From the IMG/VR virus record IMGVR_UViG_3300044617_000796, positions 32,001 to 96,000 of that record: DNA of 64,000 bases; one strand, 5' to 3'. The notes beneath the pieces were generated by a model. That model was not told the origin of the DNA. It was given only the letters and a program-made list of their open reading frames with translations, and ran no database searches. The position numbers and the translations under genes were made by a program. Position 1 is the stretch's first letter, and each line of letters opens with the position of its first letter. Origin of the DNA: a virus. Positions 5,707 through 45,764 of the stretch are shown here, piece by piece.

Positions 5707-5707
5707 A

Positions 5708-5911: not shown

Positions 5912-5917
5912 AGTTCC

Positions 5918-6906: not shown

Positions 6907-6909
6907 ACT

Positions 6910-8692: not shown

Positions 8693-8700
8693 AATCCTCC

Positions 8701-9084: not shown

Positions 9085-9086
9085 TA

Positions 9087-9467
9087 TTAATCCTCCAGAT
9101 TATTATAATACATTTCCTTTTCTTCGTCATTAGGCAATCTAAAGTTTTCAAGAGATAGAAGCTGTTTGGCTTCCTCTAATGGGACTTCTGCCATTTTTCT
9201 TCTTTGAGAAAAGCGAAATCCAGAACTAGTTGAATAACCAGCTCCGCTTTCAAATAAAACCAGTACAGTTCCATTGCTAGTGATAGTTTCTTGAACTGGT
9301 CTTTCGTGAACAGTTCCTTCTTGCACTACACCATCACCGTCACCGTCAACTGCATCTTCTTTAAATTCAACTGGTTCTGTAACTTTCTTTGCTACAGCTT
9401 TTTTAGCTACAGCTTTCTTCGGTTTATTAATTTTTTCGGATGTTACACTTGTTTCGTTGTTAGTCAT
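9087..9467 (-). CDS. Capsid-adjacent protein with a C-terminal GYSTSSG domain (start reassigned; probably leaderless)
   Basis: GTGG-TAGGAT ends 7 nt before ATG 9467; domain shared with glycosyltransferase 60533-61780. Confidence 0.6.
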   Translation of the reverse strand: MTNNETSVTSEKINKPKKAVAKKAVAKKVTEPVEFKEDAVDGDGDGVVQEGTVHERPVQETITSNGTVLVLFESGAGYSTSSGFRFSQRRKMAEVPLEEAKQLLSLENFRLPNDEEKEMYYNNLED

Positions 9468-9540
9468 AATATCAATCCTACCACTCATAACCATATAAAT
9501 CAATTGACTTCCTATGGATAATTTTACTTCAGTATAGATA

Positions 9541-9568
9541 AAAGGCGGGGCTTGAATTAGCCCCGCCC
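9541..9568 (-). terminator. Intrinsic terminator after the capsid gene
   Basis: GGCGGGGCT/AGCCCCGCC stem followed by TTTT on the minus strand. Confidence 0.75.
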
Positions 9569-9591
9569 AATATCTACTTTAATTGTTTAAA

Positions 9592-10638: not shown

Positions 10639-10658
10639 AGTAGTTTTTCCTCCTTACC

Positions 10659-12482: not shown

Positions 12483-12549
12483 TTAACCCTCGTAATTTAC
12501 AAGCATATATCATATTGACAATTATTGCAAATTATCCTAATCCTTCTGA

Positions 12550-12801
12550 TCAGCCTAACGCAAAAACTGCTACAGCAGAAGAGGCGGTGACTACCTGAAT
12601 GGTTGTATAATCGCCATCAATTTCTATATATTCCGTAGACTCTGCTGGAAGGAGGATTGTATATTGATCATTAAGCTTAATATCAACATCAGTAGCTCCC
12701 TTGTTGTAAACATACAGCTCACTTGTATGTTGTCCAATATTTACAACTCCATCTGCTGTCACTAAATTCTTGTTTGAATATACCAAACTACTTTCACTCA
12801 T
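12550..12801 (-). CDS. Hypothetical head-region protein (start reassigned)
   Basis: SD AGGAG before ATG 12801. Confidence 0.55.
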   Translation of the reverse strand: MSESSLVYSNKNLVTADGVVNIGQHTSELYVYNKGATDVDIKLNDQYTILLPAESTEYIEIDGDYTTIQVVTASSAVAVFALG

Positions 12802-14455
12802 TGTATTCTCCTTGATTAAACTTACTGGTTGAATCATTGTTCACTCCAGAATCTTGATTTTGACCACGCTCTGCTTGGGCTCCATCTGCTCTTGGGTCGC
12901 TTGTTGCCCCATCACCTGTTGGTGACTTAGGCGGTTCTGATGCAGAGTTGTTATCATTTCCAAAAGGAGCACCAGGACCATTTTTGCCTGAATCGTTTTG
13001 TTCTTTCTTAACATTCGTTGGGAATGGAAGAACTTCATCGCCATCATATCTTTCTGGAAGACCGATCTGGCTTCTGACTTCGTTTGGCGTAATAACTTCT
13101 GTCCTAAGATATCTATCGTTAATTCTTGACTGGATGTCTTCGTCAACCAAGTCAATCTTCTTAAGATGAATCTGCATTAGATCAGTAAACTCACCAACAA
13201 TCCTATTTAGTTTTTTTTCAATAATTGCCTGATCTGGTCCAATCACTTGCATCTTAAAACTCTTATCCGCATCTCTTGACACAGCCAGGTTTGCATTGTC
13301 ATAAACTCCAACTTTCGGGGCAGGGACTCTGTTTGCTACAAGAATTTCATCTCTGTTTGATTTACGATATTTATCAAATGATGAATCCTGAATTCCAGCT
13401 TCAAGTTTTTCAAACTTAATGTCAGTATTTGTTCCAAGGCTGGCAGGAAGTGGAATTACCAATGTCCCATGATTACGACCTTTAACTTCATTTCTAAAGT
13501 AGTTAATCAATTCCTGTTTTGACTTATTACTAAGCTTTGCACCCTTAAGAATAATTGCATAACGGGGAATTGCTTTGTTTTCAAAATAATCAATGTTATA
13601 TTCTTTTGCAAATTTATCACCAATGATCGCTGTTGCGGCTGACACTGCGGAAGGAATTCCATAGTATGTATTGTTTGGTGAATAAATTTTAAAGTGGATT
13701 AATTCGTTAGGTTTTGGATCGTTATTAATTGGGTCTGGAGTTTCTTTATCTTGAAACTGTCTAAAAAACACCGCTTGGATTTTATTTGTTTTTGCAATCT
13801 GCACATAACCGTCACGCTTTCTGCGAACACGAACTAGCGTTGCAGGGACATGTCCGATGTAACCAATCTTGCCAGCATTGTTTCTACCAATTTCAAGATA
13901 TCCGTTCCCTACAGTTAAAACATCTTGCCAAACACGAACCATTGTCTCAATCAATGTTTCTTCAATATTTAAACTTTCAAATGTTTCATCAAGATCTTCT
14001 TTTAAATCCTGATACTGCTGGCGAAGTCTTGTAAGTTTTTCTTCACCAGCTTGCGCTTTTTCAATTCTTCTTTTAGCCTTTAGTGTCTCTTGAAACTCGT
14101 AACCAAGACCAACTGTGTTCATAACTCTTGCATTAATAGCTGCATAATGAATTGCGCTTTGATCATACAAGCCAGCCAGCGTGTCTAGATCGTAAGGAGG
14201 GTTTACAATGTCGTAAAGTGAATATCCACTTACAACTTCTGGATCAACATATTTTGACTTGGTACCGTCTTCTCCTTCATGTTTCTTTTGAAGACGCACA
14301 GCTTTGCGCTTCATTTTTGGAGAAAGGCTGTCAATTTTTACTAAATCAAACGGATCAAATGTTTCAACTTTACTTGTGAACCCCATGTATGAAATATCAT
14401 CAATTTCTTGATCAAGAATAATTGTTTCTTCAACCAACTCTGTTTTACTTTCCAT
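12794..14455 (-). CDS. Portal protein
   Basis: GNGYLEI.RN, YYGIP, YFENKAIP, RDEILVANRVP and ITPNEVR..IGL motifs; SD before ATG 14455. Confidence 0.9.
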   Translation of the reverse strand: MESKTELVEETIILDQEIDDISYMGFTSKVETFDPFDLVKIDSLSPKMKRKAVRLQKKHEGEDGTKSKYVDPEVVSGYSLYDIVNPPYDLDTLAGLYDQSAIHYAAINARVMNTVGLGYEFQETLKAKRRIEKAQAGEEKLTRLRQQYQDLKEDLDETFESLNIEETLIETMVRVWQDVLTVGNGYLEIGRNNAGKIGYIGHVPATLVRVRRKRDGYVQIAKTNKIQAVFFRQFQDKETPDPINNDPKPNELIHFKIYSPNNTYYGIPSAVSAATAIIGDKFAKEYNIDYFENKAIPRYAIILKGAKLSNKSKQELINYFRNEVKGRNHGTLVIPLPASLGTNTDIKFEKLEAGIQDSSFDKYRKSNRDEILVANRVPAPKVGVYDNANLAVSRDADKSFKMQVIGPDQAIIEKKLNRIVGEFTDLMQIHLKKIDLVDEDIQSRINDRYLRTEVITPNEVRSQIGLPERYDGDEVLPFPTNVKKEQNDSGKNGPGAPFGNDNNSASEPPKSPTGDGATSDPRADGAQAERGQNQDSGVNNDSTSKFNQGEYNE

Positions 14456-14792
14456 TAGCGCTCCTGTTTGAGAAATGATCGTCATACATATCTTCAAATG
14501 GATCAGCTATCAAACCATCATTCAACCTTTCAACCTGATCATCCTTTTCTGATGCTGAGATTTTTCTTGCACCAGCAACCCACTTAACTAAACCATCAGC
14601 ATCACCGCTCCAGTAGCGACCAGCTTCCAAAACCCTTCTTTCAACATCTAGGTCATACATAAGACCTTCGGCGCACAGCACGCCTCCATCTCCATCTGAA
14701 AGGGCTTCATCTTTTGAAGTAAAGTAAACACACACACCGTGAGGTCTTTCTGGAACCCAGATGTTTTTGCTTTTAATCATATTTGACGACAT
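14445..14792 (-). CDS. Hypothetical protein upstream of portal
   Basis: TATAAT ends 7 nt before ATG; overlaps portal start. Confidence 0.6.
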   Translation of the reverse strand: MSSNMIKSKNIWVPERPHGVCVYFTSKDEALSDGDGGVLCAEGLMYDLDVERRVLEAGRYWSGDADGLVKWVAGARKISASEKDDQVERLNDGLIADPFEDMYDDHFSNRSANGK

Positions 14793-14845
14793 ACGGTAAA
14801 TTATACACCACTTTTATTAAAAAATGATACACAAGTGTTCAGATA

Positions 14846-16774
14846 TCAACGAATTGGGCATGCGCCTGTAGCACAGTCATCTAATTCAATTGATAAATCG
14901 CTTGACATCTGTTGCAATGGTACAGAAAGGTTGAGTTTTGACAATGTTTTGTCATACTCTTCCTTTGTAATCTCCTCGTAAGGGGGCAAAGGGAAGTTAT
15001 GGTCTACATGCAAAAGGAACGATACAGACTTGACACTCTTATCATAATTCTTTGCCAGCCATTCTTGAATAGCTGGGAGTTCCTCTTTGCGGTAATAAAC
15101 TGTCACTGAAACCGCATTATCTGCCCACTCAGCCTGCATCTTCTTAACCCATTCAAGTTGCTCAATAGCAGTCATGTTTGCTGCCAACACTGCACCCTCT
15201 GGTGATTTGCATGGGAACTCAACAACATATCGGCTGTGATCTTCTCTACCATCAAGCCCCATATCCCAAGTAACTTTATAACCACGCTTCCTGCATGCGT
15301 CAACAAGCGGGTCAACCGAACTAAACCGAACCCTGCGAATGTAGTACTGAGCAAAGGCTGGGTGAATTCCAGGAGTAACACCTGGAAGTAAGGACAGCGT
15401 TCCAGATGGCTGGACAGTAGTCAAGCGAACAGACTCAGGGAAGCCTTGTTCACGAGAGTAGTCTTTATCCAGCGCCCGCAAGTATTCATAAGCCGTTTTC
15501 AGCCATCCAATTTGAACCTCTGTGCACTGCAAAATTCCAGTTACAGACTGTCCAAGTCTTGCGTTCTTATGAACAACAGTGTTTGTTTTTTCATATGGGT
15601 ACGAAAGCCTTGTGATCTGCTTTTGCACCATGTACAAAAGTCTTGAGATTTCCATGAGTTGTGCTAGCGATTCAATGTTTGGCAAAAAGATTGTTGCAAG
15701 GTTGCATGACTCACCATCTGCAAGTGCAATCTCTGCGCATGGGTTGAAACCCTCAATAGTTGGGTCTGGCATCTTCTCGCCCAATCTTCCGTGTGTTCTT
15801 GCAAGCTTTCTATTCAACAAACCGTATGGCTCGCCAGTTCCGTCATAACCTTTCCAGAACTCTGCAACAATTTCATCATACGAGTCGGCATAGATAGAGT
15901 TGTTTGAGTTTGCTCTCCATGCAGGAACATTGCCGCTACCCCAATTCTTTGCTCTAATAAACAACATGTCATCAGGGTCTCCAATTGCAATCTGCGCCGA
16001 TCTGCGTGATGAACCAGAGACAACAATTCTTCCAATGATGTTGCAAATATCAAGAACATCAATTGAACGAAGCTTCTTTCCAACTCTCTGATCTAAAACT
16101 TTTGAAATATCTACAATGCCATCTACAAGCGCACCAGAGCCAGAGGCTGTTCCACCAAATGTCTTGAGTGGTGTTCCAAACTCACGAATCAACAAAGTTG
16201 AGTATGTAAAAGATTTACCAGTTACAAAGTAGGACTCAAGAACTTTATGGAGCAATTCCCTCCAGCCCTGTCTTGAGTCTGGAACAATAAAATCTGCGTC
16301 ATTTGTTTTTTCGGCTGTAATGTAATCTACTTTTTTAACCTTTGGCAAATCATGAATCTTTGAACGCTCAACAGAAAAACCAACCCCACCGCCAAGCATC
16401 AAGTAATCAAACAGAAGTTCAAAATCTTCAATCTTCTCAATGTTTGTAAAAAAACAATTATTAAGAGAAGTTCCTGAGAACTTCTTTACAAGAGGCGTAC
16501 CAAGTTGCCAGAGGGCTCTGCCAGAAACTGAGCACCTAAGGTTGAACATGTGATCAAACAAAGCTTCCGCTTCAGATTGCGTAAATGGAACTCCAATTTC
16601 AATAGCGCCATCAATAATTCTCTTGATTGTTTCAACCCAGGTCTCACTTCTGTCGGTTCCTTCAACTTTACGACTATATGTTCTTAAATAAACTACTTCT
16701 CCAAGACCACCAAAACCCCAAGGTGCGGTTCTTGAATTATAGCTATTAATAAAATCTGTTGTAAAAATTGACAT
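14846..16774 (-). CDS. nrdJ: Adenosylcobalamin-dependent (class II, monomeric type) ribonucleotide reductase
   Basis: RTYSR, LNNCFF, GGGVGFS, NPCAEI, SCNL, TTVQPSGT motifs and C-terminal CATGACPIR. Confidence 0.9.
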   Translation of the reverse strand: MSIFTTDFINSYNSRTAPWGFGGLGEVVYLRTYSRKVEGTDRSETWVETIKRIIDGAIEIGVPFTQSEAEALFDHMFNLRCSVSGRALWQLGTPLVKKFSGTSLNNCFFTNIEKIEDFELLFDYLMLGGGVGFSVERSKIHDLPKVKKVDYITAEKTNDADFIVPDSRQGWRELLHKVLESYFVTGKSFTYSTLLIREFGTPLKTFGGTASGSGALVDGIVDISKVLDQRVGKKLRSIDVLDICNIIGRIVVSGSSRRSAQIAIGDPDDMLFIRAKNWGSGNVPAWRANSNNSIYADSYDEIVAEFWKGYDGTGEPYGLLNRKLARTHGRLGEKMPDPTIEGFNPCAEIALADGESCNLATIFLPNIESLAQLMEISRLLYMVQKQITRLSYPYEKTNTVVHKNARLGQSVTGILQCTEVQIGWLKTAYEYLRALDKDYSREQGFPESVRLTTVQPSGTLSLLPGVTPGIHPAFAQYYIRRVRFSSVDPLVDACRKRGYKVTWDMGLDGREDHSRYVVEFPCKSPEGAVLAANMTAIEQLEWVKKMQAEWADNAVSVTVYYRKEELPAIQEWLAKNYDKSVKSVSFLLHVDHNFPLPPYEEITKEEYDKTLSKLNLSVPLQQMSSDLSIELDDCATGACPIR

Positions 16775-16846
16775 GACATACCTCCAAAAGTAAGAACAAC
16801 CATCTTACCCTGCGGGCAGACTCGGTGCAACCAAAAATACTTAGGT

Positions 16847-17860
16847 CTAAGAGAAATTATTTTCGTAGAAAACTATTCTTTCAAGAATTTTATCTGCAAC
16901 GCTTGACCAAGAGTGCTCGTTGTGCAGTGTGCGTGCAGATTGAATTGTATATTTTTTAAACTCATCATATTCAGAAACAACATGAGTCATAAGATCCATC
17001 AATTGTTCCATATCAGGATAAGCCCATAACCCTGTGTCTTCACCGTACTGATGGCTATTCCAATCCGCATTACCCATCTTGCATGAAAGAGGTATTGAAT
17101 ATTTTGCAAAATCACTACATCCAGTTGCATCTGTCACAATTGTTGGCATACCAGTACAAATTGCTTCAAAAGGTATCATACCAAAACCTTCACCACTAGT
17201 TGGGTAAACAAGGCAATGACATTTGTGATAGAGCTTAACTAAATCCTCCGTGCTTAAGTTATCTGGAATACCGTATATTTGAGGATGCTGAATAGCTGGA
17301 ACAAGATTGTTGTCAATATAAACTTCTGCCTGGCAAAAACCATTGTATTTAAGTACAAGCTTAAAGTCATCATTACCTTCATAAAGATCAAGAAATGCAT
17401 CAACAACCATTTGCGCATTTTTTCTTTTTGAATCACCGCCAACATGCAAGAAATTAAATGTCCCTGTGACTTCTCTATCAATTATTTTGAATTCATCAGA
17501 GATGCCGTGCGGAATAACATGAATGTTATGATGCACATTGTTTTGAATATATACATCTTTTACAAAATTAGATGTAGCCCATATCTCATCCATTTGTTGC
17601 ATGTTGTATTTCCAACCAACTGGGATTTTGGTTGACTCCCAAGGAGTATATCCTACCTTGTATAAACTCTGCATTTGATAGTAATGAGGCTGACAGAAGT
17701 TAACATGGAAAGGTATTTCATTCCTATTGTAGAACACAGCTACATCTTTCTCTCTAAGAGCAGCAATAGTGCTAATAGCCGCATTGCTATAGCCTTGACT
17801 ATACCAATGGACACCACTAACATCAATACTACCAGGACTAAACCAGCTGATTTTTTTCAT
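16847..17860 (-). CDS. Glycosyltransferase (GT4/GT-B)
   Basis: WESTKIP, RKN and YPTSGEGFGMIPFEA motifs. Confidence 0.85.
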   Translation of the reverse strand: MKKISWFSPGSIDVSGVHWYSQGYSNAAISTIAALREKDVAVFYNRNEIPFHVNFCQPHYYQMQSLYKVGYTPWESTKIPVGWKYNMQQMDEIWATSNFVKDVYIQNNVHHNIHVIPHGISDEFKIIDREVTGTFNFLHVGGDSKRKNAQMVVDAFLDLYEGNDDFKLVLKYNGFCQAEVYIDNNLVPAIQHPQIYGIPDNLSTEDLVKLYHKCHCLVYPTSGEGFGMIPFEAICTGMPTIVTDATGCSDFAKYSIPLSCKMGNADWNSHQYGEDTGLWAYPDMEQLMDLMTHVVSEYDEFKKYTIQSARTLHNEHSWSSVADKILERIVFYENNFS

Positions 17861-17866
17861 AAAATA

Positions 17867-18112
17867 CTATGTGCGCTTTCGCTTTTTTTTTGGTTCCTCA
17901 ATTGTTCCATTAAAGTCTAAACAGTTTACACCATTTTTAAAAAAAATTTCTGCGTCTTTTTCAGAAATCTCGCAGGTGACTGGGATGTGTGTGAACATAC
18001 ATCTTGAAGCTGCTACATAGTAATCATTCATTTTTATGATTGAGATGAAATCGGAGTCCATTATGGCAGCACCGCTGCATTCATCAGACTCAACAATCCC
18101 GACAATTCTCAT
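17867..18112 (-). CDS. Hypothetical protein (leaderless)
   Basis: GTGG-TATACT ends 6 nt before ATG. Confidence 0.5.
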   Translation of the reverse strand: MRIVGIVESDECSGAAIMDSDFISIIKMNDYYVAASRCMFTHIPVTCEISEKDAEIFFKNGVNCLDFNGTIEEPKKKRKRT

Positions 18113-23941: not shown

Positions 23942-24498
23942 TGAACATTATAGATAATTTTATCCCAGAGATGGAGCAAAATGATTTTGAGCAATATGTT
24001 GCTACATCTCATTTTCCATACAGGCTGTACAATACCCACATTTATTCAGATTCAGAAAATATTGCCTACGAGCACGCCCCGATGCAGTTGTCTCATTTTC
24101 TTTATGAATCTGAATCCGACCAGGCATCCCCACACCTGCCAATCATTACAAAGTTTGTAAAGCAACTTGAGAAGAAATATGGGAAGATTAAATTATTGCG
24201 GGCTAAAGTTAATTTGACTTTCCCATATCCTCCGTATATGAGATATGAACATCAAACCCCCCATATTGACTTGCAATATGATGATGGCAGCCCAGTTGAT
24301 CATAAGGTGCTCCTTTACTACATCAACGACACAGATGGACCGACTTATTTTTTTAATGATAAAAAAGAAATGAGTGACACGGTTTATCCCAAAAAAGGTC
24401 GTGCTGTGATTTTTGATGGCAGCGAAATTCACGCTGCGTCTAATCCTGTTAAGAATCCATTCAGGTTTATACTTAATGTAGACTTCAAGGTTCTATAG
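23941..24498 (+). CDS. 2OG-Fe(II) oxygenase (start reassigned to ATG 23941)
   Basis: MNIIDNF N-terminus, PHID, YYINDTDGPT, HAAS and RFILN motifs; the upstream ORF extension is tRNA sequence. Confidence 0.8.
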   Translation: MNIIDNFIPEMEQNDFEQYVATSHFPYRLYNTHIYSDSENIAYEHAPMQLSHFLYESESDQASPHLPIITKFVKQLEKKYGKIKLLRAKVNLTFPYPPYMRYEHQTPHIDLQYDDGSPVDHKVLLYYINDTDGPTYFFNDKKEMSDTVYPKKGRAVIFDGSEIHAASNPVKNPFRFILNVDFKVL

Positions 24499-24683
24499 TG
24501 GATAAAAACAAAATGCTTAAAATGGATAAAGAAACTTTTAACGAACTCAAGCAGCTGGAGGCGGAACGGGATAGATGGCGGGATATTGCCAACAACCTCC
24601 TCCAGGAATGGTGCGCCAACTATGGAATCAGTCGGGAACGAGCTATTGAGAAATACTTCCCCGAATTTAAGGAATTGGGATGA
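24498..24683 (+). CDS. Hypothetical protein
   Basis: Overlaps previous stop; LEAERDRWR coiled coil. Confidence 0.4.
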   Translation: MDKNKMLKMDKETFNELKQLEAERDRWRDIANNLLQEWCANYGISRERAIEKYFPEFKELG

Positions 24684-24856
24684 TTTGGATTTGGTGGATG
24701 ACTCAGTTGACTTTCATATTCTTATCAGAGATGTTAATCCACATACTTACAGCAATTGTTCTAATTGAGGTGTATCGTAATCGGCGGCTTATCTTACAGT
24801 GGCGCAAAACGGATAAATACTAACTAAAGGATTGTTTACTTGTGGCTATTGCGAGT

Positions 24857-25102
24857 TTATAATTCTATAAAAATGCATTCACCAGGGCACTCTTCGGCGG
24901 CTTCAATAACATCTTCCAACCGATCATCGGGAAAAGATGCTAAACCAGCTGCGCCTTCGGGGTTTCCTCGGAGCTTGGAATAAACCTTCCCGCTCTCTTG
25001 GACATAGGCTAACCCATCCTCCAGCATGGTGAAAACATCGGGTGCTATCTCGGCGCACAGTCCATCTCCAGTACATAGGTCTTGGTCAATCCAAACTCTC
25101 AT
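24857..25102 (-). CDS. Single-cluster ferredoxin (CxxDxxC...CP)
   Basis: WIDQDLCTGDGLCAEIAPDVF...AAEECPGECI. Confidence 0.9.
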   Translation of the reverse strand: MRVWIDQDLCTGDGLCAEIAPDVFTMLEDGLAYVQESGKVYSKLRGNPEGAAGLASFPDDRLEDVIEAAEECPGECIFIEL

Positions 25103-25500
25103 TTGCTCTTGCGCTTTGCAAGTAGGGCATCAAAGTCTTTCACCTTGGTCTCCCCCATGTATCCCCAAGCGTAGCCCTCGTCAATGAGCTGCTCGTTCAA
25201 GGACTTGGCTGCGCCATCAAGGTATACCCAACCTAAAATGCGCCCGTACTTTTCGGTGCTATCGGGAAGCTCTGTTTTTATAATAACTGTTTTGGCTGAA
25301 TCTATCGCACTCTTCACTTTATTTTTAACCTCAAGCCCCAGAGCCTTCTCTCGCAGGTCTTTGGTGCGTGACTCAGGGGTGTCTATTCCAGCCAGTCGGA
25401 CTCGTTGTGCGAAAGAGATATTAAAACCCAGATCAATGTCCACATCAATCGTGTCACCGTCTACTACCTTTGTTACTTTTTTGATATTATATTCGTACAT
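25099..25500 (-). CDS. Thermonuclease (SNase-like)
   Basis: VVDGDTID, VRLAGIDTPE and KYGRILG motifs. Confidence 0.88.
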   Translation of the reverse strand: MYEYNIKKVTKVVDGDTIDVDIDLGFNISFAQRVRLAGIDTPESRTKDLREKALGLEVKNKVKSAIDSAKTVIIKTELPDSTEKYGRILGWVYLDGAAKSLNEQLIDEGYAWGYMGETKVKDFDALLAKRKSK

Positions 25501-25531
25501 TTATCAAGTATAGCAGGTATACTATAAGACT

Positions 25532-25705
25532 ATGGCTATCTATCATTACCGCTGCCACAACCAGCACACCTACGAAGAGTCTAGAAAGATGTCTGAAGAA
25601 CCTAGAGTAGTTACATGTCCTGAGTGCGACCTACCTCTGAAACAAATATTCTCCCCGCCAGGAATCAACTTCAAAGGTCATGGCTTCTACCGTAACTCTC
25701 GGTAA
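25532..25705 (+). CDS. FmdB-family zinc-ribbon protein (57 aa, missing from the ORF track)
   Basis: Translated by hand: MAIYHYRCHNQH...CPECDLPLKQIFSPPGINFKGHGFYRNSR. Confidence 0.8.
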   Translation: MAIYHYRCHNQHTYEESRKMSEEPRVVTCPECDLPLKQIFSPPGINFKGHGFYRNSR

Positions 25706-25756
25706 TACACCCAATCATTATTACTACCCCGCAAATTAGTATCTGTGTATACTGAT

Positions 25757-25831
25757 AAAGGCAGCGAAAGCTAACCTTAGGACCGTTATAGGTGCAGATG
25801 CCTCTGGGCTCAACCCCCAGGGGCATGTGCA
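25757..25831 (+). ncRNA. Candidate small structured RNA
   Basis: TATACT at 25748; GAAA-capped hairpin plus an 11-bp GC-rich hairpin; no credible ORF. Confidence 0.3.
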
Positions 25832-26047
25832 TGTGTAGCGGTCTTTTTTATTCTCCCCCAAACTTTTATACTCCTATACCCGCCCTGAACCTTCCTATCC
25901 CAAATTTGAGTATACATTTTATGAATGTTACTTTTACTTTTAGACGCACTGGAAAATCCTGTGTTCACTAGGGTCAATCGCTGGAGTGCGATTCTGCTTA
26001 AGCAAAGAATTGTACACCAGCGATTGGGAAAGCGGATACAAAGGAAA

Positions 26048-26079
26048 TTGAATACACATTTTCTCTCAAATGCTATTGT
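26048..26079 (+). promoter_or_regulatory. Cassette 1 promoter (box B + extended -10 TGC-TATTGT)
   Basis: TGn-TANNNT with -10 exactly 20 nt after the TTGAAT hexamer, as in all eight cassettes. Confidence 0.65.
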
Positions 26080-26120
26080 AATTTGTGTCAAGGCAATCCC
26101 GCCGAGACAGAGAGGACAGT

Positions 26121-26354
26121 ATGATTACTGAACACTGGACACGACAGAATGAGTTGCGTGAGCGTGAGCGCATGGCACTACGCTTGCTCAACCATATCCT
26201 GTCAATGACAATACCCGTTGAGGCTAATGACGATTGGTCTTGCGTCAAGTTCAACCTCAAATTAGAGGGCGGTTCCATTACCGTAATGACAGGCGCACAA
26301 TATCACCCGTCATGCAATATGTACGAGGTCATGGAATACGAGGTACAGCGATGA
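26121..26354 (+). CDS. Cassette 1 gene a, hypothetical
   Basis: SD GAGG before ATG 26121. Confidence 0.65.
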   Translation: MITEHWTRQNELRERERMALRLLNHILSMTIPVEANDDWSCVKFNLKLEGGSITVMTGAQYHPSCNMYEVMEYEVQR

Positions 26355-26443
26355 AGTACCTACCACGCATTGGCTTCGGCATTGTGATTGGTTGCTTGGT
26401 TCTGATGATTGTTCAGACCATCGCCCACGCCTTTACAATGTGA
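26351..26443 (+). CDS. Cassette 1 gene b, 30-aa single-TM peptide
   Basis: ATGA overlap, GAGG upstream; MKYLPRIGFGIVIGCLVLMIVQTIAHAFTM. Confidence 0.5.
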   Translation: MKYLPRIGFGIVIGCLVLMIVQTIAHAFTM

Positions 26444-26447
26444 GCCC

Positions 26448-26492
26448 GAACCCCGAATGCCTCCCCCCTGAGGCATTCGGGGTTCTTTTTTT
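26448..26492 (+). terminator. Cassette 1 terminator
   Basis: 16-bp perfect stem plus T7. Confidence 0.9.
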
Positions 26493-26631
26493 GTCCCTGC
26501 ACCCGCCCTATCGCATGTCTGTTCCAATGAACTTTAATACACTCACAACACACATGCGATCGGGTGGTGGGCAAGGGCGCTTCAGCATTGCAATTGCACA
26601 CCAACTGTTGAGGATCAGAGCATGAACGAGA

Positions 26632-26663
26632 TTGAATACACATTTTTCCTCACATGGTATGTT
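26632..26663 (+). promoter_or_regulatory. Cassette 2 promoter (TGG-TATGTT)
   Basis: Box B + 20 nt + -10. Confidence 0.7.
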
Positions 26664-26708
26664 TATTGTTATCGGAACACACCTAACCCCGATGAAAGGA
26701 CAAAGACC

Positions 26709-27017
26709 ATGAGTGAAAGAATATGTTCATATCATAGTTGGAACTACTTGTATGAAGTGCACCCAAGCGGTAAGTACTTCATTGCATACCAGTTCAGTTA
26801 CGACAATAAAGAGAGACAAGTTATTGCCGTAGTTGACCGCTATGTAACAGATGACAAGTGGGCTGCTATGCGTTGGTGCAGGGCACAGTATGACCTTGAG
26901 GTTGAACCTTGGGACAGAAGTGCTGAAGCCAACGAGATTAGGGAGAGTGCAAGGGTTGCCTTGCATGAACTCCACGAGTTGGAGAAAGAACAGGACAGGT
27001 ATCGTATCTACGGGTGA
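26709..27017 (+). CDS. Cassette 2 gene, hypothetical
   Basis: SD AAGGA before ATG 26709. Confidence 0.65.
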   Translation: MSERICSYHSWNYLYEVHPSGKYFIAYQFSYDNKERQVIAVVDRYVTDDKWAAMRWCRAQYDLEVEPWDRSAEANEIRESARVALHELHELEKEQDRYRIYG

Positions 27018-27022
27018 TACCA

Positions 27023-27050
27023 TCTCCCCTCGCCTTTGGGCGGGGGGAGA
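27023..27050 (+). terminator. Cassette 2 hairpin (lacks T-tract)
   Basis: 12-bp stem nearly identical to the cassette 6 terminator stem. Confidence 0.55.
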
Positions 27051-27182
27051 ACCCCGACCTAATTGCGAACGATCATACATGTTTTTTAATACACATTCTC
27101 ACAAGAAAAAATCATTGGTGTGCGGAGCTGCTTCAGCGAAAGATTTGTGCACCAACGAATAGGGCACATGCTCTCAACAGCG

Positions 27183-27214
27183 TTTAATACACATTTTTTA
27201 CAAGATGGTATGTT
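27183..27214 (+). promoter_or_regulatory. Cassette 3 promoter (TGG-TATGTT)
   Basis: Box B + 20 nt + -10. Confidence 0.7.
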
Positions 27215-27260
27215 TATTTATGTCAAGGACACTCCCTAACACCTTGACAGGGAGATAGCA

Positions 27261-27452
27261 ATGAAAAAGCGGACAGAAGTTAGTCCAAACCACCCAGTCG
27301 CAAGACTGACACTGGAACAACAATTCATGGTTGTTGCAGGCGCACTCAATCGTGCTACCCAGCAGGGCAACACGAAAGGCATTCAGGGCTTGGCAATGAT
27401 GCTCAAGGGTTACGAGGAAGCAATAGCCAAGAAGAACCAAGAAGCCAAGTAA
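27261..27452 (+). CDS. Cassette 3 gene, hypothetical helical protein
   Basis: SD GGGAG. Confidence 0.65.
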   Translation: MKKRTEVSPNHPVARLTLEQQFMVVAGALNRATQQGNTKGIQGLAMMLKGYEEAIAKKNQEAK

Positions 27453-27469
27453 TACCCTAATCCCCCCAG

Positions 27470-27505
27470 TCCCCTCAAGCCGAAAGGCTTGGGGGGATTT
27501 TTTTT
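27470..27505 (+). terminator. Cassette 3 terminator
   Basis: 12-bp stem, GAAA loop, T8. Confidence 0.9.
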
Positions 27506-27643
27506 GCCTAAACACCAGCGTTCTCACATGACCATACCCTTTATCTTTAATACACATTCTCATCACACAAGAACGGTGGTGTGCAAAGCTGCTTCAGCAA
27601 AAGATTTGTACGCCAACGAATGAGGTACACACTATCAACTCTC

Positions 27644-27675
27644 TTTAATACACATTTTCCATCAGATGGTATGGT
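27644..27675 (+). promoter_or_regulatory. Cassette 4 promoter (TGG-TATGGT)
   Basis: Box B + 20 nt + -10. Confidence 0.7.
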
Positions 27676-27719
27676 TATCTTGTTCCTAGCAATCCCGCTA
27701 GGACAGATTGGAGATAGCA

Positions 27720-27941
27720 ATGAAAATTATGGTTACTATCCAAACCCCGACTTGCCCCGAATGCGGGCATTGGGGCGAGATCCAAATGACCCGTGATGAA
27801 TGGGAGTTTGGCAAGACGGCTAGTTGGCAGGGCGAACTCATTCAGAATTGTTTCCCTACCCTTACCCCAGCCCAGCGTGAGCAACTCATGAATGGCTACC
27901 ATTCAGAGTGTTGGGATAAGATGTTTGCGAGTGCAGAATGA
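27720..27941 (+). CDS. Cassette 4 gene a, zinc-binding-like (CPEC...IQ..FP.L....RE.L..G.H..CWD)
   Basis: SD GGAG before ATG 27720. Confidence 0.7.
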   Translation: MKIMVTIQTPTCPECGHWGEIQMTRDEWEFGKTASWQGELIQNCFPTLTPAQREQLMNGYHSECWDKMFASAE

Positions 27942-28177
27942 GCCCGCAATTACTGGAGACTATCCTCCACGCCGTAGCAGACCTACGGATACCCAAGACT
28001 GACGGGGTAATCATTGAGGCTCTCAAGATACCCCGTGAGATATTCCAGCAAGACGGTGTAGAGTGCCGTAAATACAAGCGGAGTGTTGAGCATCAGATAC
28101 GCACTCACCCCGCTATCAAGCCAGTACTTGTCTGGTGGACAGTACACGGTGACTGCTACTTGACAAGAGCAGACTGA
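27938..28177 (+). CDS. Cassette 4 gene b, hypothetical
   Basis: ATGA overlap; ends just before the terminator. Confidence 0.6.
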   Translation: MSPQLLETILHAVADLRIPKTDGVIIEALKIPREIFQQDGVECRKYKRSVEHQIRTHPAIKPVLVWWTVHGDCYLTRAD

Positions 28178-28182
28178 AACTT

Positions 28183-28216
28183 CCCCCTCGTGCCTTCGGG
28201 TGCGAGGGGGTTTTTT
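28183..28216 (+). terminator. Cassette 4 terminator
   Basis: 12-bp stem, cTTCGg loop, T6. Confidence 0.9.
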
Positions 28217-28356
28217 CATGTCCAACACCAGTCTTTCCGTATGCCATTGCCCATTGTCTTGAATACACATTCTCATACGAAAAAAAGAATGGTGTACGGA
28301 GCTGCTTCAGCAAAAGCTTTGTGCACCAGCCGAAGGGGTACACACTCTCAACTACA

Positions 28357-28388
28357 TTGAATACACATTTTTCATGATATGTTATGTT
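28357..28388 (+). promoter_or_regulatory. Cassette 5 promoter (TGT-TATGTT)
   Basis: Box B + 20 nt + -10. Confidence 0.7.
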
Positions 28389-28435
28389 TATTCATGTCAG
28401 CGATTATCCTAACCCCGCTGGCAAGGAGAAAGCAA

Positions 28436-28693
28436 ATGAAACGAGTACCTAAAGGCTCTGTCAAGGTAATGAAGCGTGGGCGCAGTAAGTTCCATGACCC
28501 GTACCTTGCCAAGTGCGTCAAGGCAGTAAGCAACACTTATGATATTGTTGCAACACAAAGGGCAGTACCGAACACGATAGCCAACAAAAACCGTGTTCGT
28601 TCCCGCATTATGAGCCTTGCAGGAAACAAAAAACTTGGCGTGAATTGGTACGCTGAGGGCAAACTTGTAGTGCCAGTAATCACCAAGAAATAA
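28436..28693 (+). CDS. Cassette 5 gene, basic RGR-motif protein (paralog of cassette 7 and 8 genes)
   Basis: SD AAGGAG; KRGRSKFHD...GVNWYAEGKLVV. Confidence 0.7.
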   Translation: MKRVPKGSVKVMKRGRSKFHDPYLAKCVKAVSNTYDIVATQRAVPNTIANKNRVRSRIMSLAGNKKLGVNWYAEGKLVVPVITKK

Positions 28694-28709
28694 GGTCGCT
28701 TCTCCAGCG

Positions 28710-28743
28710 AACCCCCAAGCCTACGGGCTTGGGGGTTTTTTTT
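28710..28743 (+). terminator. Cassette 5 terminator
   Basis: 12-bp stem, cTACGg loop, T-tract. Confidence 0.9.
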
Positions 28744-28884
28744 GTGCCTGAACGCCAGCGCCATAGCAAAGTCATAACCAGTTGGTTGAGCACATGTTCT
28801 CTCTCTTGATATGTCGTTGGCGTGCGGATTGGGTTTACCAAACAATTTGAACGACAACGAAAAGGGTACAGGGTCTCAACGGCA

Positions 28885-28916
28885 TTGAATACACATTTTT
28901 GATGACATGGTATGTT
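28885..28916 (+). promoter_or_regulatory. Cassette 6 promoter (TGG-TATGTT)
   Basis: Box B + 20 nt + -10. Confidence 0.7.
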
Positions 28917-28962
28917 TATAGATGTCAAGGACATTCCATACCCCCTTGACAAGGAGATAGCA

Positions 28963-29229
28963 ATGACACACCTACCCGAACACCCAAGAGCACTCACGAT
29001 TGCTCATGAGGATGTTGTCAAAGTTGCCTTGCAACTGAAAGACAACCTCATCACCAGAGGCGAGATGAATGCTCAGATGCTCAGCATTGTGGTTGGCATG
29101 AAAGTTGCCCTGCGCCAAGAGTTCATTGGCGAAGTGCAGGACAAGTTGAGCGACATTGAGCAACTGTTCACAGATGTTCAAGGCTCAATTGAGGAAATGG
29201 ATTACCTCACACTCTTCCAACCAGAGTGA
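28963..29229 (+). CDS. Cassette 6 gene, acidic helical hypothetical protein
   Basis: SD AAGGAG before ATG 28963. Confidence 0.65.
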   Translation: MTHLPEHPRALTIAHEDVVKVALQLKDNLITRGEMNAQMLSIVVGMKVALRQEFIGEVQDKLSDIEQLFTDVQGSIEEMDYLTLFQPE

Positions 29230-29244
29230 TTGTTCCTTCCCCCG

Positions 29245-29279
29245 CTCCCCTCGCCTTCGGGCGGGGGGAGTTTTTTTTT
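29245..29279 (+). terminator. Cassette 6 terminator
   Basis: 11-bp stem, cTTCGg loop, T9. Confidence 0.9.
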
Positions 29280-29418
29280 GCCTGAACTCCAACTTTTCCC
29301 ATATGCCATGTCTCTTTGCTTGAGTACACATTCTCACACTGGAAAAAAAGCTGGTGGGCGGATCTGCTTTAGCAAAAGATTTGCACTCCAGCCAATGAGG
29401 AAGCGAAACGAAACCAGG

Positions 29419-29450
29419 TTGAATACATATTTTTAGCGTAATGCTATATT
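29419..29450 (+). promoter_or_regulatory. Cassette 7 promoter (TGC-TATATT)
   Basis: Box B + 20 nt + -10. Confidence 0.7.
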
Positions 29451-29516
29451 TATCTCATGCCAAAGCGATTAGGCTGAGGCAACACACTGCGGTGTGTATA
29501 ACCAAGGAGATAAGCA

Positions 29517-29828
29517 ATGCCAAAGGTAAACCTAAGCGACCTCAAAGGTCAGTTATCATCTCGTGGGCGAGCCCCGTATGACAACCCTGAACTTGAGGCT
29601 GAAATCAAGAGCCTTGACCCAGCCATTGATGGTGATGCAACCATCTATGAGGGCAGTCAAGGAGACCCATCAAGCGAGGACTACACGAACCACAAAGCAA
29701 TGTGGCGTGGGCGTGCCGAGACAATTGCCGACAAGAACGGCATTGCCATCAGCGTGCAGTGGCTCACCACTGGTCAGATGGTTATCTCGCTTGCCAAGCC
29801 TGCAAAGGGCAAGAGCAAGCGCAAGTAA
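29517..29828 (+). CDS. Cassette 7 gene, RGR-motif protein
   Basis: SD AAGGAG; close paralog of 30149-30454. Confidence 0.75.
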   Translation: MPKVNLSDLKGQLSSRGRAPYDNPELEAEIKSLDPAIDGDATIYEGSQGDPSSEDYTNHKAMWRGRAETIADKNGIAISVQWLTTGQMVISLAKPAKGKSKRK

Positions 29829-29850
29829 CCGCATCTCCTGCGGTTAGTAT

Positions 29851-29885
29851 AGAACCCCCGTACTTCGGTACGGGGGTTCTTTTTT
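29851..29885 (+). terminator. Cassette 7 terminator
   Basis: 13-bp perfect stem, cTTCGg loop, T-tract. Confidence 0.92.
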
Positions 29886-30050
29886 GCTGGCGTTCATCCC
29901 GTGCTGAAGCACAATGAACGCCAGCTTTGCGACACATGCCATTCTCTCATTTTTAGTACAGATTCTCAATCCCATTCCCTGGCGGGCGTGCGATTGCGCT
30001 TTAGCGATGCAATTGCACACCCGCTGTTGGGGTACCAATACGAAACCGAA

Positions 30051-30082
30051 TTGAATACATATTTTCACCATAATGGTATGTT
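30051..30082 (+). promoter_or_regulatory. Cassette 8 promoter (TGG-TATGTT)
   Basis: Box B + 20 nt + -10. Confidence 0.7.
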
Positions 30083-30148
30083 TATTTATGTCAAAGGCAA
30101 TACCGCCGAGACACACTCATACCGAGTGTTGAACATGGGAGAATACCT

Positions 30149-30454
30149 ATGGCAAAGATAAACCTCAATGACTTGCAAGGCATGCTGTCCAAGCGTGGGC
30201 GTGAGGCGTTCCACGATGAGACACTACAAGCCGAGATTGTTAGCCTTGACCCAAAGGTTGAGGGTGACGCATTCATTTGGGATGACGCACAGGGTAATCC
30301 AAACGATGAGGATTACACAAACCACAAGGCTAAGTATCGTGGTCGTGTTGAAACCATTGCAGAGCGCAACAATGTCGCTGTGTCCGTTCAATGGACTACA
30401 GACGGGCGTTGCGTAGTCTCACTCGCCAAGCCTGCCAAAGGCAAGCGCAAGTAA
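30149..30454 (+). CDS. Cassette 8 gene, RGR-motif protein
   Basis: SD GGGAG; paralog of 29517-29828. Confidence 0.75.
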   Translation: MAKINLNDLQGMLSKRGREAFHDETLQAEIVSLDPKVEGDAFIWDDAQGNPNDEDYTNHKAKYRGRVETIAERNNVAVSVQWTTDGRCVVSLAKPAKGKRK

Positions 30455-30475
30455 CCCTTACCCCGTAAGGCGTGT

Positions 30476-30510
30476 AGAAGCCCCGTACTTCGGTACGGGG
30501 CTTCTTTTTT
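30476..30510 (+). terminator. Cassette 8 terminator
   Basis: 13-bp perfect stem with a compensatory change relative to cassette 7, cTTCGg loop, T-tract. Confidence 0.92.
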
Positions 30511-31330
30511 GCTGGTGTTCATCCCGTGCTAAAGCACAATGAACACCAGTTATCAGAAGGCTTATCGTTACCATTTTTAATATACATATTCCTAATCATA
30601 AAGATGGCGGGTGTCCCAAAAAGAAATGCATTTGTTTTTGTACACCCGCAAAATATAATTAATTTATCGCTTAACTTTATTACATATTTCTAATCATAAC
30701 TATAAGATTACATATGGCTTTCAAAATGTATTCCAAAATCTCATAGATAAATACTTATCTAAGGGAGGAAGGTAAAAGTTTACGCACATTTTATTTTTGT
30801 TAATCAAATGGGCTGGGAAAGACTTAGCCTGTCTCTCTACCTATCGCCTCAGATTACATCAGTGTAATCAAACACTTATACTATTCCTAAATCTATGCAT
30901 CAACCCGTCATTATTCTGGGTCATCAATCGGTTATAGTATTACGCCCCTATATAGTCTAAAAGAGGGGGAATATGTTTGTATTATTCTTATAGATACCCA
31001 GTAATAGGGTATTTACATAGGGGAATCTAAATAGATCTCAATATCTGAGCTTTTTTGCCCAATTGTTGACCATTTTGGTAGTATTTCTATTAAAAATATT
31101 ATTAATTAGTGAAAAAAAGACAAAAAAAACACCCAAAAATAAGCTTATTTTAAGCCTATAAATGGGTGTTTTCCTTATGTACTATGTGATATATCAGCTA
31201 TATATTATTGATACATCTATGATATGCCTATGATATGAACTCCTGCTATATAGAATATATCTTATACATATTGGAGCGTGTCTCTCTCATACGCTAATGG
31301 TTTTTGACACTTATTTTCTATCAATTCAAA

Positions 31331-45443: not shown

Positions 45444-45764
45444 TTATTTTGATTTTTTTATTTGTGTTATTGTTTTGTTTATAACAATTGGGACTATTTC
45501 AGAATAGTCAATTACATTATAAACTTTCTTAATTGAATTTCTTTCACGAGAAGAAAAGCCTCCCCAAACACCATGCTCTATGTTTTCATTTAAAGCATAA
45601 GATAAGCATTCGGTTTGAACTTTGCAATCACCACAAAATTCTCTTGCTTTACTAATTTTCTTTGTGCTGTACCTTCCATTTTCAGTTTCAAAAAAGAAAA
45701 TATCTAATGGATGTTTTTTGCATTTAGCAAAATCTCTCCACTCTTCCCGTCTAGTTTTAGCCAT
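45444..45764 (-). CDS. whiB: WhiB-family transcriptional regulator
   Basis: W...AKC...FF...A...C..C.V...CL.YAL.....GVWGG.S..ER. Confidence 0.92.
   Translation of the reverse strand: MAKTRREEWRDFAKCKKHPLDIFFFETENGRYSTKKISKAREFCGDCKVQTECLSYALNENIEHGVWGGFSSRERNSIKKVYNVIDYSEIVPIVINKTITQIKKSK

Follow-up and report, generated by a model that had tools for sequence, protein, structure and literature searches.

A strand-specific, covarying hairpin between terminators and promoters in a gene cassette array of an uncultured freshwater phage

Introduction

In an array of small, singly expressed genes, each with its own promoter and terminator, why should a conserved hairpin stand between the terminator of one gene and the promoter of the next, where no conserved structure would be anticipated? 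The question is raised by a stretch of 64,000 nucleotides (positions 32,001 to 96,000 of IMG/VR record IMGVR_UViG_3300044617_000796; hereafter the window) from the complete 108.8-kb (~109 kb) genome of an uncultured, siphovirus-like freshwater phage. The array is located in a non-structural block of plus-strand genes, and minus-strand genes converge on its distal end. The phage carries two genes for WhiB-type regulators and a capsid 55% identical to that of the Streptomyces cluster BE phages, and its host is therefore probably a freshwater actinobacterium. The genome has a single giant ORF, whose 4,375-aa product matches tape measure proteins. For the single-subunit RNA polymerase, virion- or phage-encoded, that goes with N4-type hairpin promoters, the family PF00940 was unmatched in the phage genome, but its control gave no match anywhere either; no sigma factor gene was found. 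With neither recognized, control of the array would have to act on the host polymerase or on RNA.

In this study, we establish the fold, strand, conservation, geometry and distribution of the hairpin, and we propose that it may be transcribed, bound by a factor and used for attenuation or processing.

Results

The nine hairpins and their conservation

The window contains nine hairpins on the plus strand (Table 1), each an element of about 45 nt with a stem of roughly 13-23 pairs, an A-rich 3' bulge and a loop of 4-5 nt. The diverged apex of the terminal copy, H9, recurs in relatives. Predicted RNA folding energies range from -16.4 to -32.6 kcal/mol on the plus strand and are weaker on the minus strand in nine of nine cases (-9.9 to -30.4 kcal/mol). 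Compared with shuffled sequence, single hairpins have z values of -1.2 to -8.7 and not all of them reach significance, so the case for the element rests on its conservation.

In three related IMG/VR phage contigs and some 40 contigs from metagenomes, no cassette promoter lacks this hairpin ahead of it, and 122 distinct in-register copies were obtained. When 34 copies from four phage genomes were aligned with MAFFT, practically no gaps were needed; in the 15-pair lower stem, 82.4% of the cells are paired and the covariation score reaches 0.347, compared with 27-43% and at most 0.139 after the partners are slid by 1-3 columns. For 82 distinct metagenome copies, whose alignment was fitted to the model, the corresponding values are 79.9% versus 28-43% and 0.333 versus at most 0.115. 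The apical stem covaries as does the lower one. At column pair 14-52, the 122 copies include TA 84 times, GC 26, CG 11 and AT once with no mismatch, where about 53% matches would be expected under independence. The column consensus of these copies is GCTGGNGKGC ... TTGYACACCAGC.

Throughout the core stem, G.T or T.G pairs outnumber A.C or C.A pairs by 166 to 29, which identifies the gene-sense strand as the folding strand; of the 122 copies, 104 have their better fold on the top strand. At column pair 22-44, G.U-type pairs are more frequent than any other state; at 20-46, they are almost as frequent as G-C. These observations support selection on a strand-specific fold. A preliminary description of the locus had listed the nine hairpins with the apex GC-TTNA-GC, replaced by GG-TTTA-CC in the sixth, and an A-rich 3' bulge, all of which inspection and folding of the sequence confirmed; its compensatory switches next to the apex reappear as GC, CG and TA pairs, and the strand specificity and covariation that it proposed held in the larger alignments, the latter above the slid-partner controls.

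The apex takes two clade-specific forms, C-TTMA-G with an AAA or ATA bulge and TGC-GNNTA-GCA with an AA bulge, the loop being conserved inside a clade and different across clades. Together with the covariation of the apical stem, such conservation is what a site read by a trans-acting factor would show.

The hairpin is a real and widespread element found in no RNA family library, with a function that is so far inferred. In a search of the window with Rfam 15, only tRNAs reached the gathering score, and up to E 10 the one overlap with a hairpin was a chance-level match of mir-367 at H1 (E 0.22; 23 bits, where the gathering score is 54). In the relatives L079 and L131, no Rfam 15 match with E up to 0.1 overlapped any hairpin.

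Table 1. Features of the cassette array, numbered from the first nucleotide of the window
Feature	Position	Strand	Remarks
Hairpin H1	25974-26027	+	Extended outer stem; 59.6 bits
Hairpin H2	26561-26607	+	Fold and alignment
Hairpin H3	27112-27158	+	Fold and alignment
Hairpin H4	27574-27618	+	Fold and alignment
Hairpin H5	28290-28328	+	14 + 2 pairs, AAA 3' bulge, TTCA loop
Hairpin H6	28814-28860	+	Apex GG-TTTA-CC
Hairpin H7	29350-29392	+	Fold and alignment
Hairpin H8	29981-30025	+	Fold and alignment
Hairpin H9	30607-30649	+	Terminal unit; diverged A/T-rich apex; no gene after
Inverted copy H'	29889-29928	-	After terminator of gene 29517-29828; perfect 12-bp stem
Second inverted copy H'	30514-30553	-	After terminator of gene 30149-30454
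Promoter boxes B, eight	26048-30063 (starts 26048, 26632, 27183, 27644, 28357, 28885, 29419, 30051)	+	TTGAATACACATT, 13 nt, extended -10 TGG-TATGTT
Degenerate ninth box B	Start 30674	+
Boxes A	27085-30592 (starts 27085, 27546, 28259, 29320, 29952, 30576)	+	TTKAATACACATTCTCA; 98-99 nt before B; no TANNNT -10 element
Degenerate box A copies	Near 26533, 28786	+
Promoter-like site P0	25906-25934	+	TTGAGT, 17 nt, TG-n-TACTTT; read from the sequence
Intrinsic terminators behind cassette genes	26448-30505 (26448-26485, 27468-27499, 28183-28210, 28709-28738, 29244-29271, 29851-29880, 30476-30505)	+
Stem-loop without T-run	27024-27049	+
5'-UTR hairpin, example	27222-27248	+	GTCAAGG...CCTTGAC
5'-UTR hairpin, example	28397-28426		GTCAGCG...CGCTGGC
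KRGR-motif family, encoded	28436-28693, 29517-29828, 30149-30454

Geometry of the cassettes

In each cassette, the terminator and an optional box A come before the hairpin; 29 nt separate the hairpin from box B and its -10 element, after which the 5'-UTR hairpin and the gene follow. Box B is a 13-nt sequence followed, after 13-14 nt, by TANNNT; no TTGACA-like hexamer was found 16-18 bp before the -10 element of these promoters. Such an abnormal box, in a phage with two WhiB-type regulators, makes factor-dependent promoters likely. The 3' arm of the hairpin is separated from box B by 29 nt, rarely 30-31, with an offset of 0 in 202 of 220 units, and the spacer is free in sequence. From the hairpin it is about 65-110 bp to the predicted transcript start of the cassette, at which the 5'-UTR hairpin begins, and about 150 nt to the start codon. 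Boxes A and B are 98-102 bp apart with the hairpin apex midway between them, and about 30 nt before each box A stands GAACNCC, a relic of the hairpin 3' arm.

The promoter-like site P0, about 35 nt before H1, is conserved in four of four genomes and may work as a promoter. In about one quarter of 34 units from four phage contigs, the stem-loop upstream of the hairpin has no T-run. In a diverged relative, most units consist only of a T-run, about 10 nt, the hairpin, 29 nt and box B, an order in which a read-through polymerase would make the hairpin first.

Inverted copies and array proteins

After the last genes of each array, and at the distal end only, the hairpin occurs in inverted orientation, with the clade-specific loop and 3' bulge retained on the opposite strand. 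The copy at 29889-29928 has a legible H-type apex (TTCA loop, 3' bulge) on the minus strand, where it scores 27.1 bits, and is unmatched on the plus strand up to E 1; the second scores 26.4 bits on the minus and 15.6 on the plus strand. No minus-strand terminator was found between these copies and the convergent minus-strand genes. The KRGR-motif proteins of the array match an R3H-like fold only weakly (Z 5.5-7.3).

Discussion

A read-through RNA hairpin as a candidate insulator

We tentatively favor, at somewhat less than an even chance, an RNA hairpin formed on read-through transcripts and recognized at its apex, which would insulate neighboring cassettes. In this reading, small, singly expressed genes are separated by a repeated regulatory cassette whose structured core is the hairpin, and the hairpin RNA would be made only on transcripts arriving from upstream, from P0 at the first unit, past stem-loops lacking a U-tract or by terminator leakage. 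Folded into its bulged stem, this RNA may be recognized at the apex by a clade-specific factor or a double-strand RNase that halts or cuts the transcript before the next promoter, and insulation from cassette to cassette would result. The inverted copies may play a like role against antisense transcripts from the convergent minus-strand genes.

The frequent G.U pairs suit RNA and make a two-strand cruciform unlikely, because the opposite strand would hold A.C. Transcription into the hairpin is plausible given P0 before H1 and the quarter of units without an upstream U-run, for which reason calling the gap presumably untranscribed, as was done at first, is unsafe. In T4-type phages, the stem-loop of a comparable cassette, PeSL, was shown to attenuate transcription from upstream (PMC2839356). 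Two points speak against an RNA role: the hairpin itself is followed by no U-tract, and strong canonical terminators stand just upstream of most units, so that read-through RNA may be rare.

Alternative explanations

The main rival, doubtful in our estimate, is a promoter-coupled single-stranded DNA element: an inverted repeat, its center roughly 85-90 bp from the start predicted for promoter B on the upstream side, that would act on DNA, the non-template top strand folding when opened by upstream negative supercoiling or a single-strand-binding factor, and the structure, or a protein holding it, tuning promoter B jointly with the 13-nt box. The near-invariant spacing across a spacer of free sequence points to such coupling at the DNA level, which an RNA insulator would not need, and GAACNCC, kept before box A with no pairing partner, suggests a role of the arm independent of the hairpin; there the 3' arm and the box, some 30 nt apart, recur as a two-part module with no hairpin. 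The midway position of the apex, the departure of box B from a normal -35 element and the two WhiB-type regulators fit as well, and the excess of G.T over A.C would equally suit a DNA hairpin of the top strand. However, bulged stems in which G.T is the commonest or nearly the commonest state at two column pairs make poor cruciforms, a double-stranded operator cannot account for the perfect complementary covariation at 14-52, and we know of no process by which DNA at this distance (65-110 bp) ahead of a bacterial promoter would stay single-stranded. It is improbable that the small KRGR-family proteins of the array bind the hairpin as single-stranded nucleic acid in a self-contained phage system, where DNA binding would control the adjacent factor-dependent promoter or direct cassette exchange; if so, a widespread lineage of freshwater actinophages would possess an integrase-free, structure-guided cassette system.

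Related arrays differ by whole cassettes or swapped genes with breakpoints on either side of the hairpin (the relative G001 has one extra cassette and swapped genes, the conserved elements between cassettes being kept), and the array, with its cassettes in one direction, looks integron-like, all of which would suit a recombination site for the exchange of cassettes between phages, whether attC-like, otherwise structure-specific or simply a patch of homology. We consider this quite improbable: in the complete genome, neither the tyrosine recombinase family PF00589 (its control matched in 14 of 14 genomes) nor the Y1 HUH transposase family PF01797 (control matched in 6 genomes) was found, RYYYAAC/GTTRRRY cores are absent from the consensus, the sense strand is the one that folds, and ordinary homologous recombination at the 13-nt boxes or terminators, as proposed for PeSLs, requires no hairpin. 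That the element has no function of its own, being a quasi-palindrome left by cassette duplication whose complementarity template-switch repair maintains, is decidedly improbable. The cassettes are paralogous and partly homogenized inside one genome, and box A with its arm relic resembles a decayed duplicate, but such repair yields Watson-Crick pairs rather than lasting G.T, the pair counts of the 34- and 82-copy sets point towards significant covariation, and the flanking spacers have diverged freely while hairpin, apex and spacing were kept across clades. Least probable of all are top-strand hairpins serving as single-strand initiation or end-protection signals, for priming or nuclease control, exposed when the array is the lagging-strand template or when a nearby genome end is resected. 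The use of both strands by H and H' recalls the paired ssi sites of RSF1010-type origins, two independent contigs terminate at window positions 31,209-31,214, about 0.5 kb past the array, and the capsid-related cluster BE phages have terminal repeats of ~11 kb (PMC5764925); nevertheless, an origin or end signal would not need 9-14 hairpin copies, every one of them at a set distance from its promoter.

Significance and comparison with known systems

Should the element be what its features suggest, it would be a new and well-supported structured nucleic-acid motif with more than 120 distinct copies, two covarying stems and clade-specific apices, a third component of the cassettes of promoter and terminator that are believed to drive the shuffling of genes in plastic regions of phages and, beside the ESAS of cluster K mycobacteriophages, a second actinophage case of orientation-specific inverted repeats linked to gene expression. 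Although the phage is uncultured, the compact, modular layout of the array makes its parts open to study with reporters in Streptomyces, Mycobacterium or Corynebacterium.

Among four mechanisms proposed at first, read-through RNA is the most economical, and the other three each miss a defining feature. Integron attC sites are likewise imperfect hairpins with unpaired bases between same-direction cassettes, but no integrase is encoded here, no R''/R' cores (RYYYAAC ... GTTRRRY) flank the stem base in the 122-copy consensus, the sense strand folds, and each cassette has its own box B, -10 element and terminator, whereas attC cassettes are promoterless. A substrate of the IS200/IS605 or REP/RAYT type was rejected for want of a Y1 HUH transposase in the genome. 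The N4 promoter hairpin is short, with a stem of 5-7 bp and a loop of 3 nt, and immediately precedes the start site, an arrangement that a bulged stem of 14-21 pairs with a 4-5-nt loop, about 65-110 bp before the start of a cassette with its own promoter and on the gene-sense strand, does not fit.

The lambdoid nut/boxB and T7 early RNase III sites are phage RNA hairpins whose loop or stem is read by a factor and which control read-through or part neighboring messages. One clade has a GNNUA pentaloop reminiscent of those of boxB, and the irregular ~20-bp stem resembles RNase III substrates. Unlike nut/boxB, the present array has no boxA or N-like protein, its hairpins stand before rather than after each cassette promoter, and nothing lies downstream of the array for antitermination to serve.

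The ESAS of cluster K mycobacteriophages, as described in the accessible text of PMC3203893 and PMC12699233, also occur in one orientation among non-structural genes of an actinophage and are imperfect ~17-bp inverted repeats with a short spacer and a consensus differing by subcluster; their function was still unknown as of 2025. That text places the 17-bp repeats directly before a 13-bp start-associated sequence (PMC3203893), just upstream of the ribosome-binding site within the 5' UTR, and contains no report of covariation or strand bias. The present hairpin is located ahead of the promoter, with about 150 nt between it and the start codon, and has no visible sequence similarity to ESAS, and its identification as one was rejected.

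The closest likeness is to the PeSLs of T4-type phages (PMC2839356, PMC4122927), in which a promoter and a stem-loop with G-T pairs are likewise repeated between small ORFan genes of a plastic region, and close relatives differ by insertion, loss or replacement of units bounded as cassettes. PeSL promoters follow the host sigma-70 consensus and their carriers are T4-like myoviruses, whereas here a non-sigma-70 13-nt box is used by an actinophage-related siphovirus. In addition to a separate canonical terminator, the present cassettes possess a longer hairpin (~45 nt) with a conserved apex and 3' bulge, held at a fixed 29 nt from the promoter box where PeSL positions vary.

Architecture of the cassette array

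Nine plus-strand units stand in a row at 25.8-30.7 kb of the window, and the nine hairpins reported there in the preliminary description (H1 to H9) are all present at their positions. Each unit comprises a G+C-rich intrinsic terminator, often a first box (box A, TTKAATACACATTCTCA), the hairpin, a variable, purine-rich spacer of 29 nt, and a 13-nt promoter box (box B, TTGAATACACATT) with an extended -10 element, TGG-TATGTT, 13 nt downstream of it. From the predicted transcript start runs a smaller second hairpin, and then come a strong ribosome-binding site and one or two small ORFs, for which no family match was found; we infer both the transcript start and the promoter class. The G+C content of the plus-strand array (24,000-30,700) is 43-48.5%, and the window outside it has 29-46%, for the most part 31-40%; the row of units itself reaches 47-48%. 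The contrast suggests a different origin of this block or different constraints on it.

The second hairpin is conserved at the predicted transcript start of every cassette and carries compensatory changes (GTCAAGG/CCTTGAC versus GTCAGCG/CGCTGGC); the start context that comes next, GGAGATAGCAATG, is nearly fixed, and the hairpin is probably a 5'-terminal mRNA stabilizer. At the upstream edge of the array, just before the promoter-like site P0, the sequence forms a very stable hairpin (about 70 nt; fold of 25752-25852, -55 kcal/mol, z -7.7) that has a T-run behind it and is kept in relatives; this may be either a small RNA or a strong terminator for the operon upstream.

Features of the array, its surroundings and its relatives (window coordinates unless indicated)
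Feature	Coordinates	Strand	Description
Tape measure ORF	4812-17939 (genome)	-	4,375 aa, outside the window
Stable hairpin before P0	25779-25846		Followed by a T-run
P0	25906-25934		TTGAGT, 17 nt, TG-n-TACTTT; conserved, promoter-like, about 35 nt before H1
Stem-loop after a gene	27024-27049		No T-run
Transcript-start hairpins (examples)	27222-27248, 28397-28426
KRGR-family genes	28436-28693, 29517-29828, 30149-30454		Array paralogues
Chi octamer in H7	29350-29357		5' arm
Inverted hairpin copies	29889-29928, 30514-30553	-	Complete, perfectly paired, promoter-distal, after the last two genes; apex fits the model on this strand
Inverted copies in L078	1035-1092, 1644-1701, 2261-2312 (locus)
Shared contig end	31,209-31,214		0.5 kb beyond the array
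WhiB-family gene	45,534-45,740	-
WhiB-family gene	103,294-103,470 (genome)	-

Distribution of the hairpin

Not every individual hairpin copy was significant against shuffles, and relatives were therefore sought. A phage DNA search returned no relative; relatives were obtained by pattern scans of IMG/VR and metagenomes, from which several single-hit loci were discarded as chance matches. The same array occurs in three more IMG/VR contigs, one a close relative (G001) and two from a diverged clade (G002 and G003), and in about 40 metagenome contigs. A covariance model built from 34 copies gave 222 matches in these roughly 40 contigs, all within arrays, and no match outside the arrays of the four phage contigs. 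Rfam contained no family for the hairpin at either gathering or permissive thresholds. The hairpin precedes the box in 220 of 358 box occurrences, which are the B-type boxes; 202 of these share one register with the hairpin, and the remainder deviate by one base (16) or two bases (2). Most units of a diverged relative lack box A, and the hairpin there starts about 10 nt past the terminator T-run.

Selection on the fold

The fold of the hairpin is under selection. In an ungapped MAFFT alignment of 34 copies, 82.4% of the cells of the 15-pair lower stem are paired, versus 27-43% when the partners are slid, and the covariation score is 0.347 versus at most 0.139. The 82 distinct metagenome copies, whose alignment was fitted to the model, gave 79.9% versus 28-43% paired and a score of 0.333 versus at most 0.115. 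Pair 14-52 illustrates the pattern: the 122 distinct in-register copies have TA (84), GC (26), CG (11) or AT (1) and no mismatch, where independent half-sites would be expected to match in only about 53%. The apical stem covaries too, with pairs 26-40 and 27-39 of one apex type alternating among GC, CG and TA, and pair 26-38 of the other among GC, TA and GT. The compensatory changes claimed from the window are borne out.

Strand specificity, also proposed from the window, holds as well: as RNA the plus strand of the nine hairpins has folding energies of -16 to -33 kcal/mol, and the minus strand is always less stable. Across the core stem, G.T and T.G pairs number 166 versus 29 for A.C and C.A, and the top strand is the better folder in 104 of the 122 copies, a bias exceeding that of the 5'-UTR hairpin, which is certainly RNA. 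The excess of G.T pairs and the top-strand bias identify the folding strand as the gene-sense strand, and the data are explained neither by a symmetric cruciform nor by a plain double-stranded operator.

The 5' side has the consensus GCTGGNGKGC and the 3' side TTGYACACCAGC; three G-C/C-G pairs are near-invariant, with one or two exceptions among 122 copies, and two of the positions frequently carry purine-purine mismatches. Two apex forms occur, and each genome is uniform for one. The window phage and G001 carry the tetraloop C-TTMA-G and a 3' bulge of AAA or ATA, and 77 of the 122 copies, including those of G002, G003 and L131, have TGC-GNNTA-GCA with an AA bulge. A conserved, clade-specific apex on a stem kept only for pairing is the pattern expected if a co-evolving factor reads the site. 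H7 contains the E. coli Chi octamer, GCTGGTGG, oriented to face an end rightward; it is not conserved in the other copies and was therefore treated as a probable coincidence.

Partial and inverted copies

Box A is similar to box B as far as about position 21 and has no TANNNT -10 element; with the transcript start set at the same distance as for box B, transcription would begin within the 5' arm, and box A was rejected as a promoter. About 30 nt upstream of box A lies a conserved GAACNCC, a relic of a hairpin 3' arm, so that the intergenic region can be read as a tandem of a module consisting of arm, about 30 nt and box. Apart from the inverted copies that follow the last two genes, the full hairpin is retained only in the promoter-proximal module copy. 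These inverted copies recur in relatives in the same arrangement and with the loop type of the respective clade, and in the window (two copies) and L078 (three) they always come next after the terminator of a KRGR-family gene.

In about a quarter of the 34 units of the four phage contigs, the upstream stem-loop lacks a T-run. In the post-gene stem-loop of this kind in the window and its equivalents in relatives, the 3' arm leads directly into AGAACCCC, a sequence that lines up with the GAACNCC relic of other units. From such units, transcription should continue into box A and the hairpin.

The phage, its host and the array proteins

The source IMG/VR virus record, of which the window covers bases 32,001-96,000, is 108,840 bp long and rated complete by CheckV, with recognizable portal, protease, capsid and terminase genes. 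The N-terminal 1,200 residues of a 4,375-aa ORF match tape measure proteins, and the unusual length of this ORF would imply a very long tail. The capsid protein shares 55% identity with its counterparts in Streptomyces cluster BE phages, and two WhiB-family genes are present, a family whose profile matched only Corynebacterium among the control genomes; an actinobacterium is therefore the most likely host. The WhiB proteins are candidate factors for redirecting the polymerase of the host to the 13-nt promoter box, which is non-canonical. We read a freshwater origin from contig accessions that resemble lake surveys. No match to a tyrosine recombinase, a Y1 HUH transposase, sigma-70 region 2 or 4, or RNase III was found in the genome, nor to a T7-type polymerase, whose profile matched no control genome either.

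Three array genes are paralogues sharing the motif KRGR-x-x-F/Y-x-D (hhalign probability 92.6%) and form the most widespread cassette family across related arrays. AlphaFold models of two array proteins (pLDDT 69 and 77) gave weak to middling matches to the R3H, KhpB and IF3-C-like nucleic-acid-binding folds (Z 4-7.3), which offers a possible lead.

G001 and metagenome locus L095, which are independent, end at most 5 bp apart, where the sequence is A+T-rich and lacks any ORF of at least 60 aa. These ends resemble assembly breaks and were rejected as transcript ends; a physical end of the genome, or the border of a terminal repeat, may lie at this position. Cluster BE phages have terminal repeats of about 11 kb (PMC5764925), a size like that of the plus-strand block at 19.4-30.7 kb.

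Possible roles of the hairpin

The reading we favour, tentatively, is that the hairpin acts in read-through RNA and insulates the cassettes from one another. The hairpin would form on read-through transcripts, which would be halted or cut ahead of the next promoter by some factor or by a double-strand RNase. Such a role is favoured by G.U-type pairs being the commonest or nearly so at two stem positions, by the conserved apex and bulge, by plausible sources of transcription into the hairpin, and by its place as the first sequence past the terminator. The inverted copies, correctly oriented, sit exactly at the point of entry expected for antisense transcripts of the convergent minus-strand genes, and no minus-strand terminator was found between the two. 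There is also a precedent in the promoter/stem-loop (PeSL) cassettes of T4-type phages, in which a stem-loop adjoining the promoter attenuates upstream transcription (PMC2839356). Insulation by RNA requires neither the near-invariant distance to box B across a spacer of free sequence nor the 3'-arm motif kept without its partner before box A; both speak for a promoter-coupled element of top-strand DNA, a rather unlikely alternative resting mainly on geometry. For each of the single-stranded DNA families proposed earlier (attC-like site, HUH substrate, N4-type signal), a defining feature is missing. Most of the remaining probability is shared by recombination, by priming or end functions, and by the lack of any function.

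Several other explanations were rejected. Invariant stem bases with 3-nt periodicity could reflect coding, but stop codons interrupt even the best frame in 20% of copies. By inspection, start codons vary in a small ORF past the purine-rich tail of the hairpin, and the spacings of arms and boxes do not fit sigma-54, ECF or Bacteroidetes promoters. Antitermination of the nut or put kind was dismissed because the plus strand has no feature beyond the array. Hairpin variants showed no clear bias in linkage to the upstream or to the downstream gene after allowing for indels.

Comparison with known systems

As a whole, the array would work in the manner of PeSL cassettes. It is not a member of that group: its promoter departs from the sigma-70 consensus, its terminator is separate, and T4 is no relative of the phage. 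The hairpin recalls the inverted repeats known as ESAS in cluster K mycobacteriophages, whose function was still unexplained in 2025 (PMC3203893, PMC12699233): the two are alike in size, in orientation bias and in a consensus that varies with the subcluster. ESAS lie in the 5' UTR, whereas the window hairpin precedes the promoter. The array belongs to a known kind, phage regulatory cassettes with structured elements, to which it adds a new and well-supported hairpin element.
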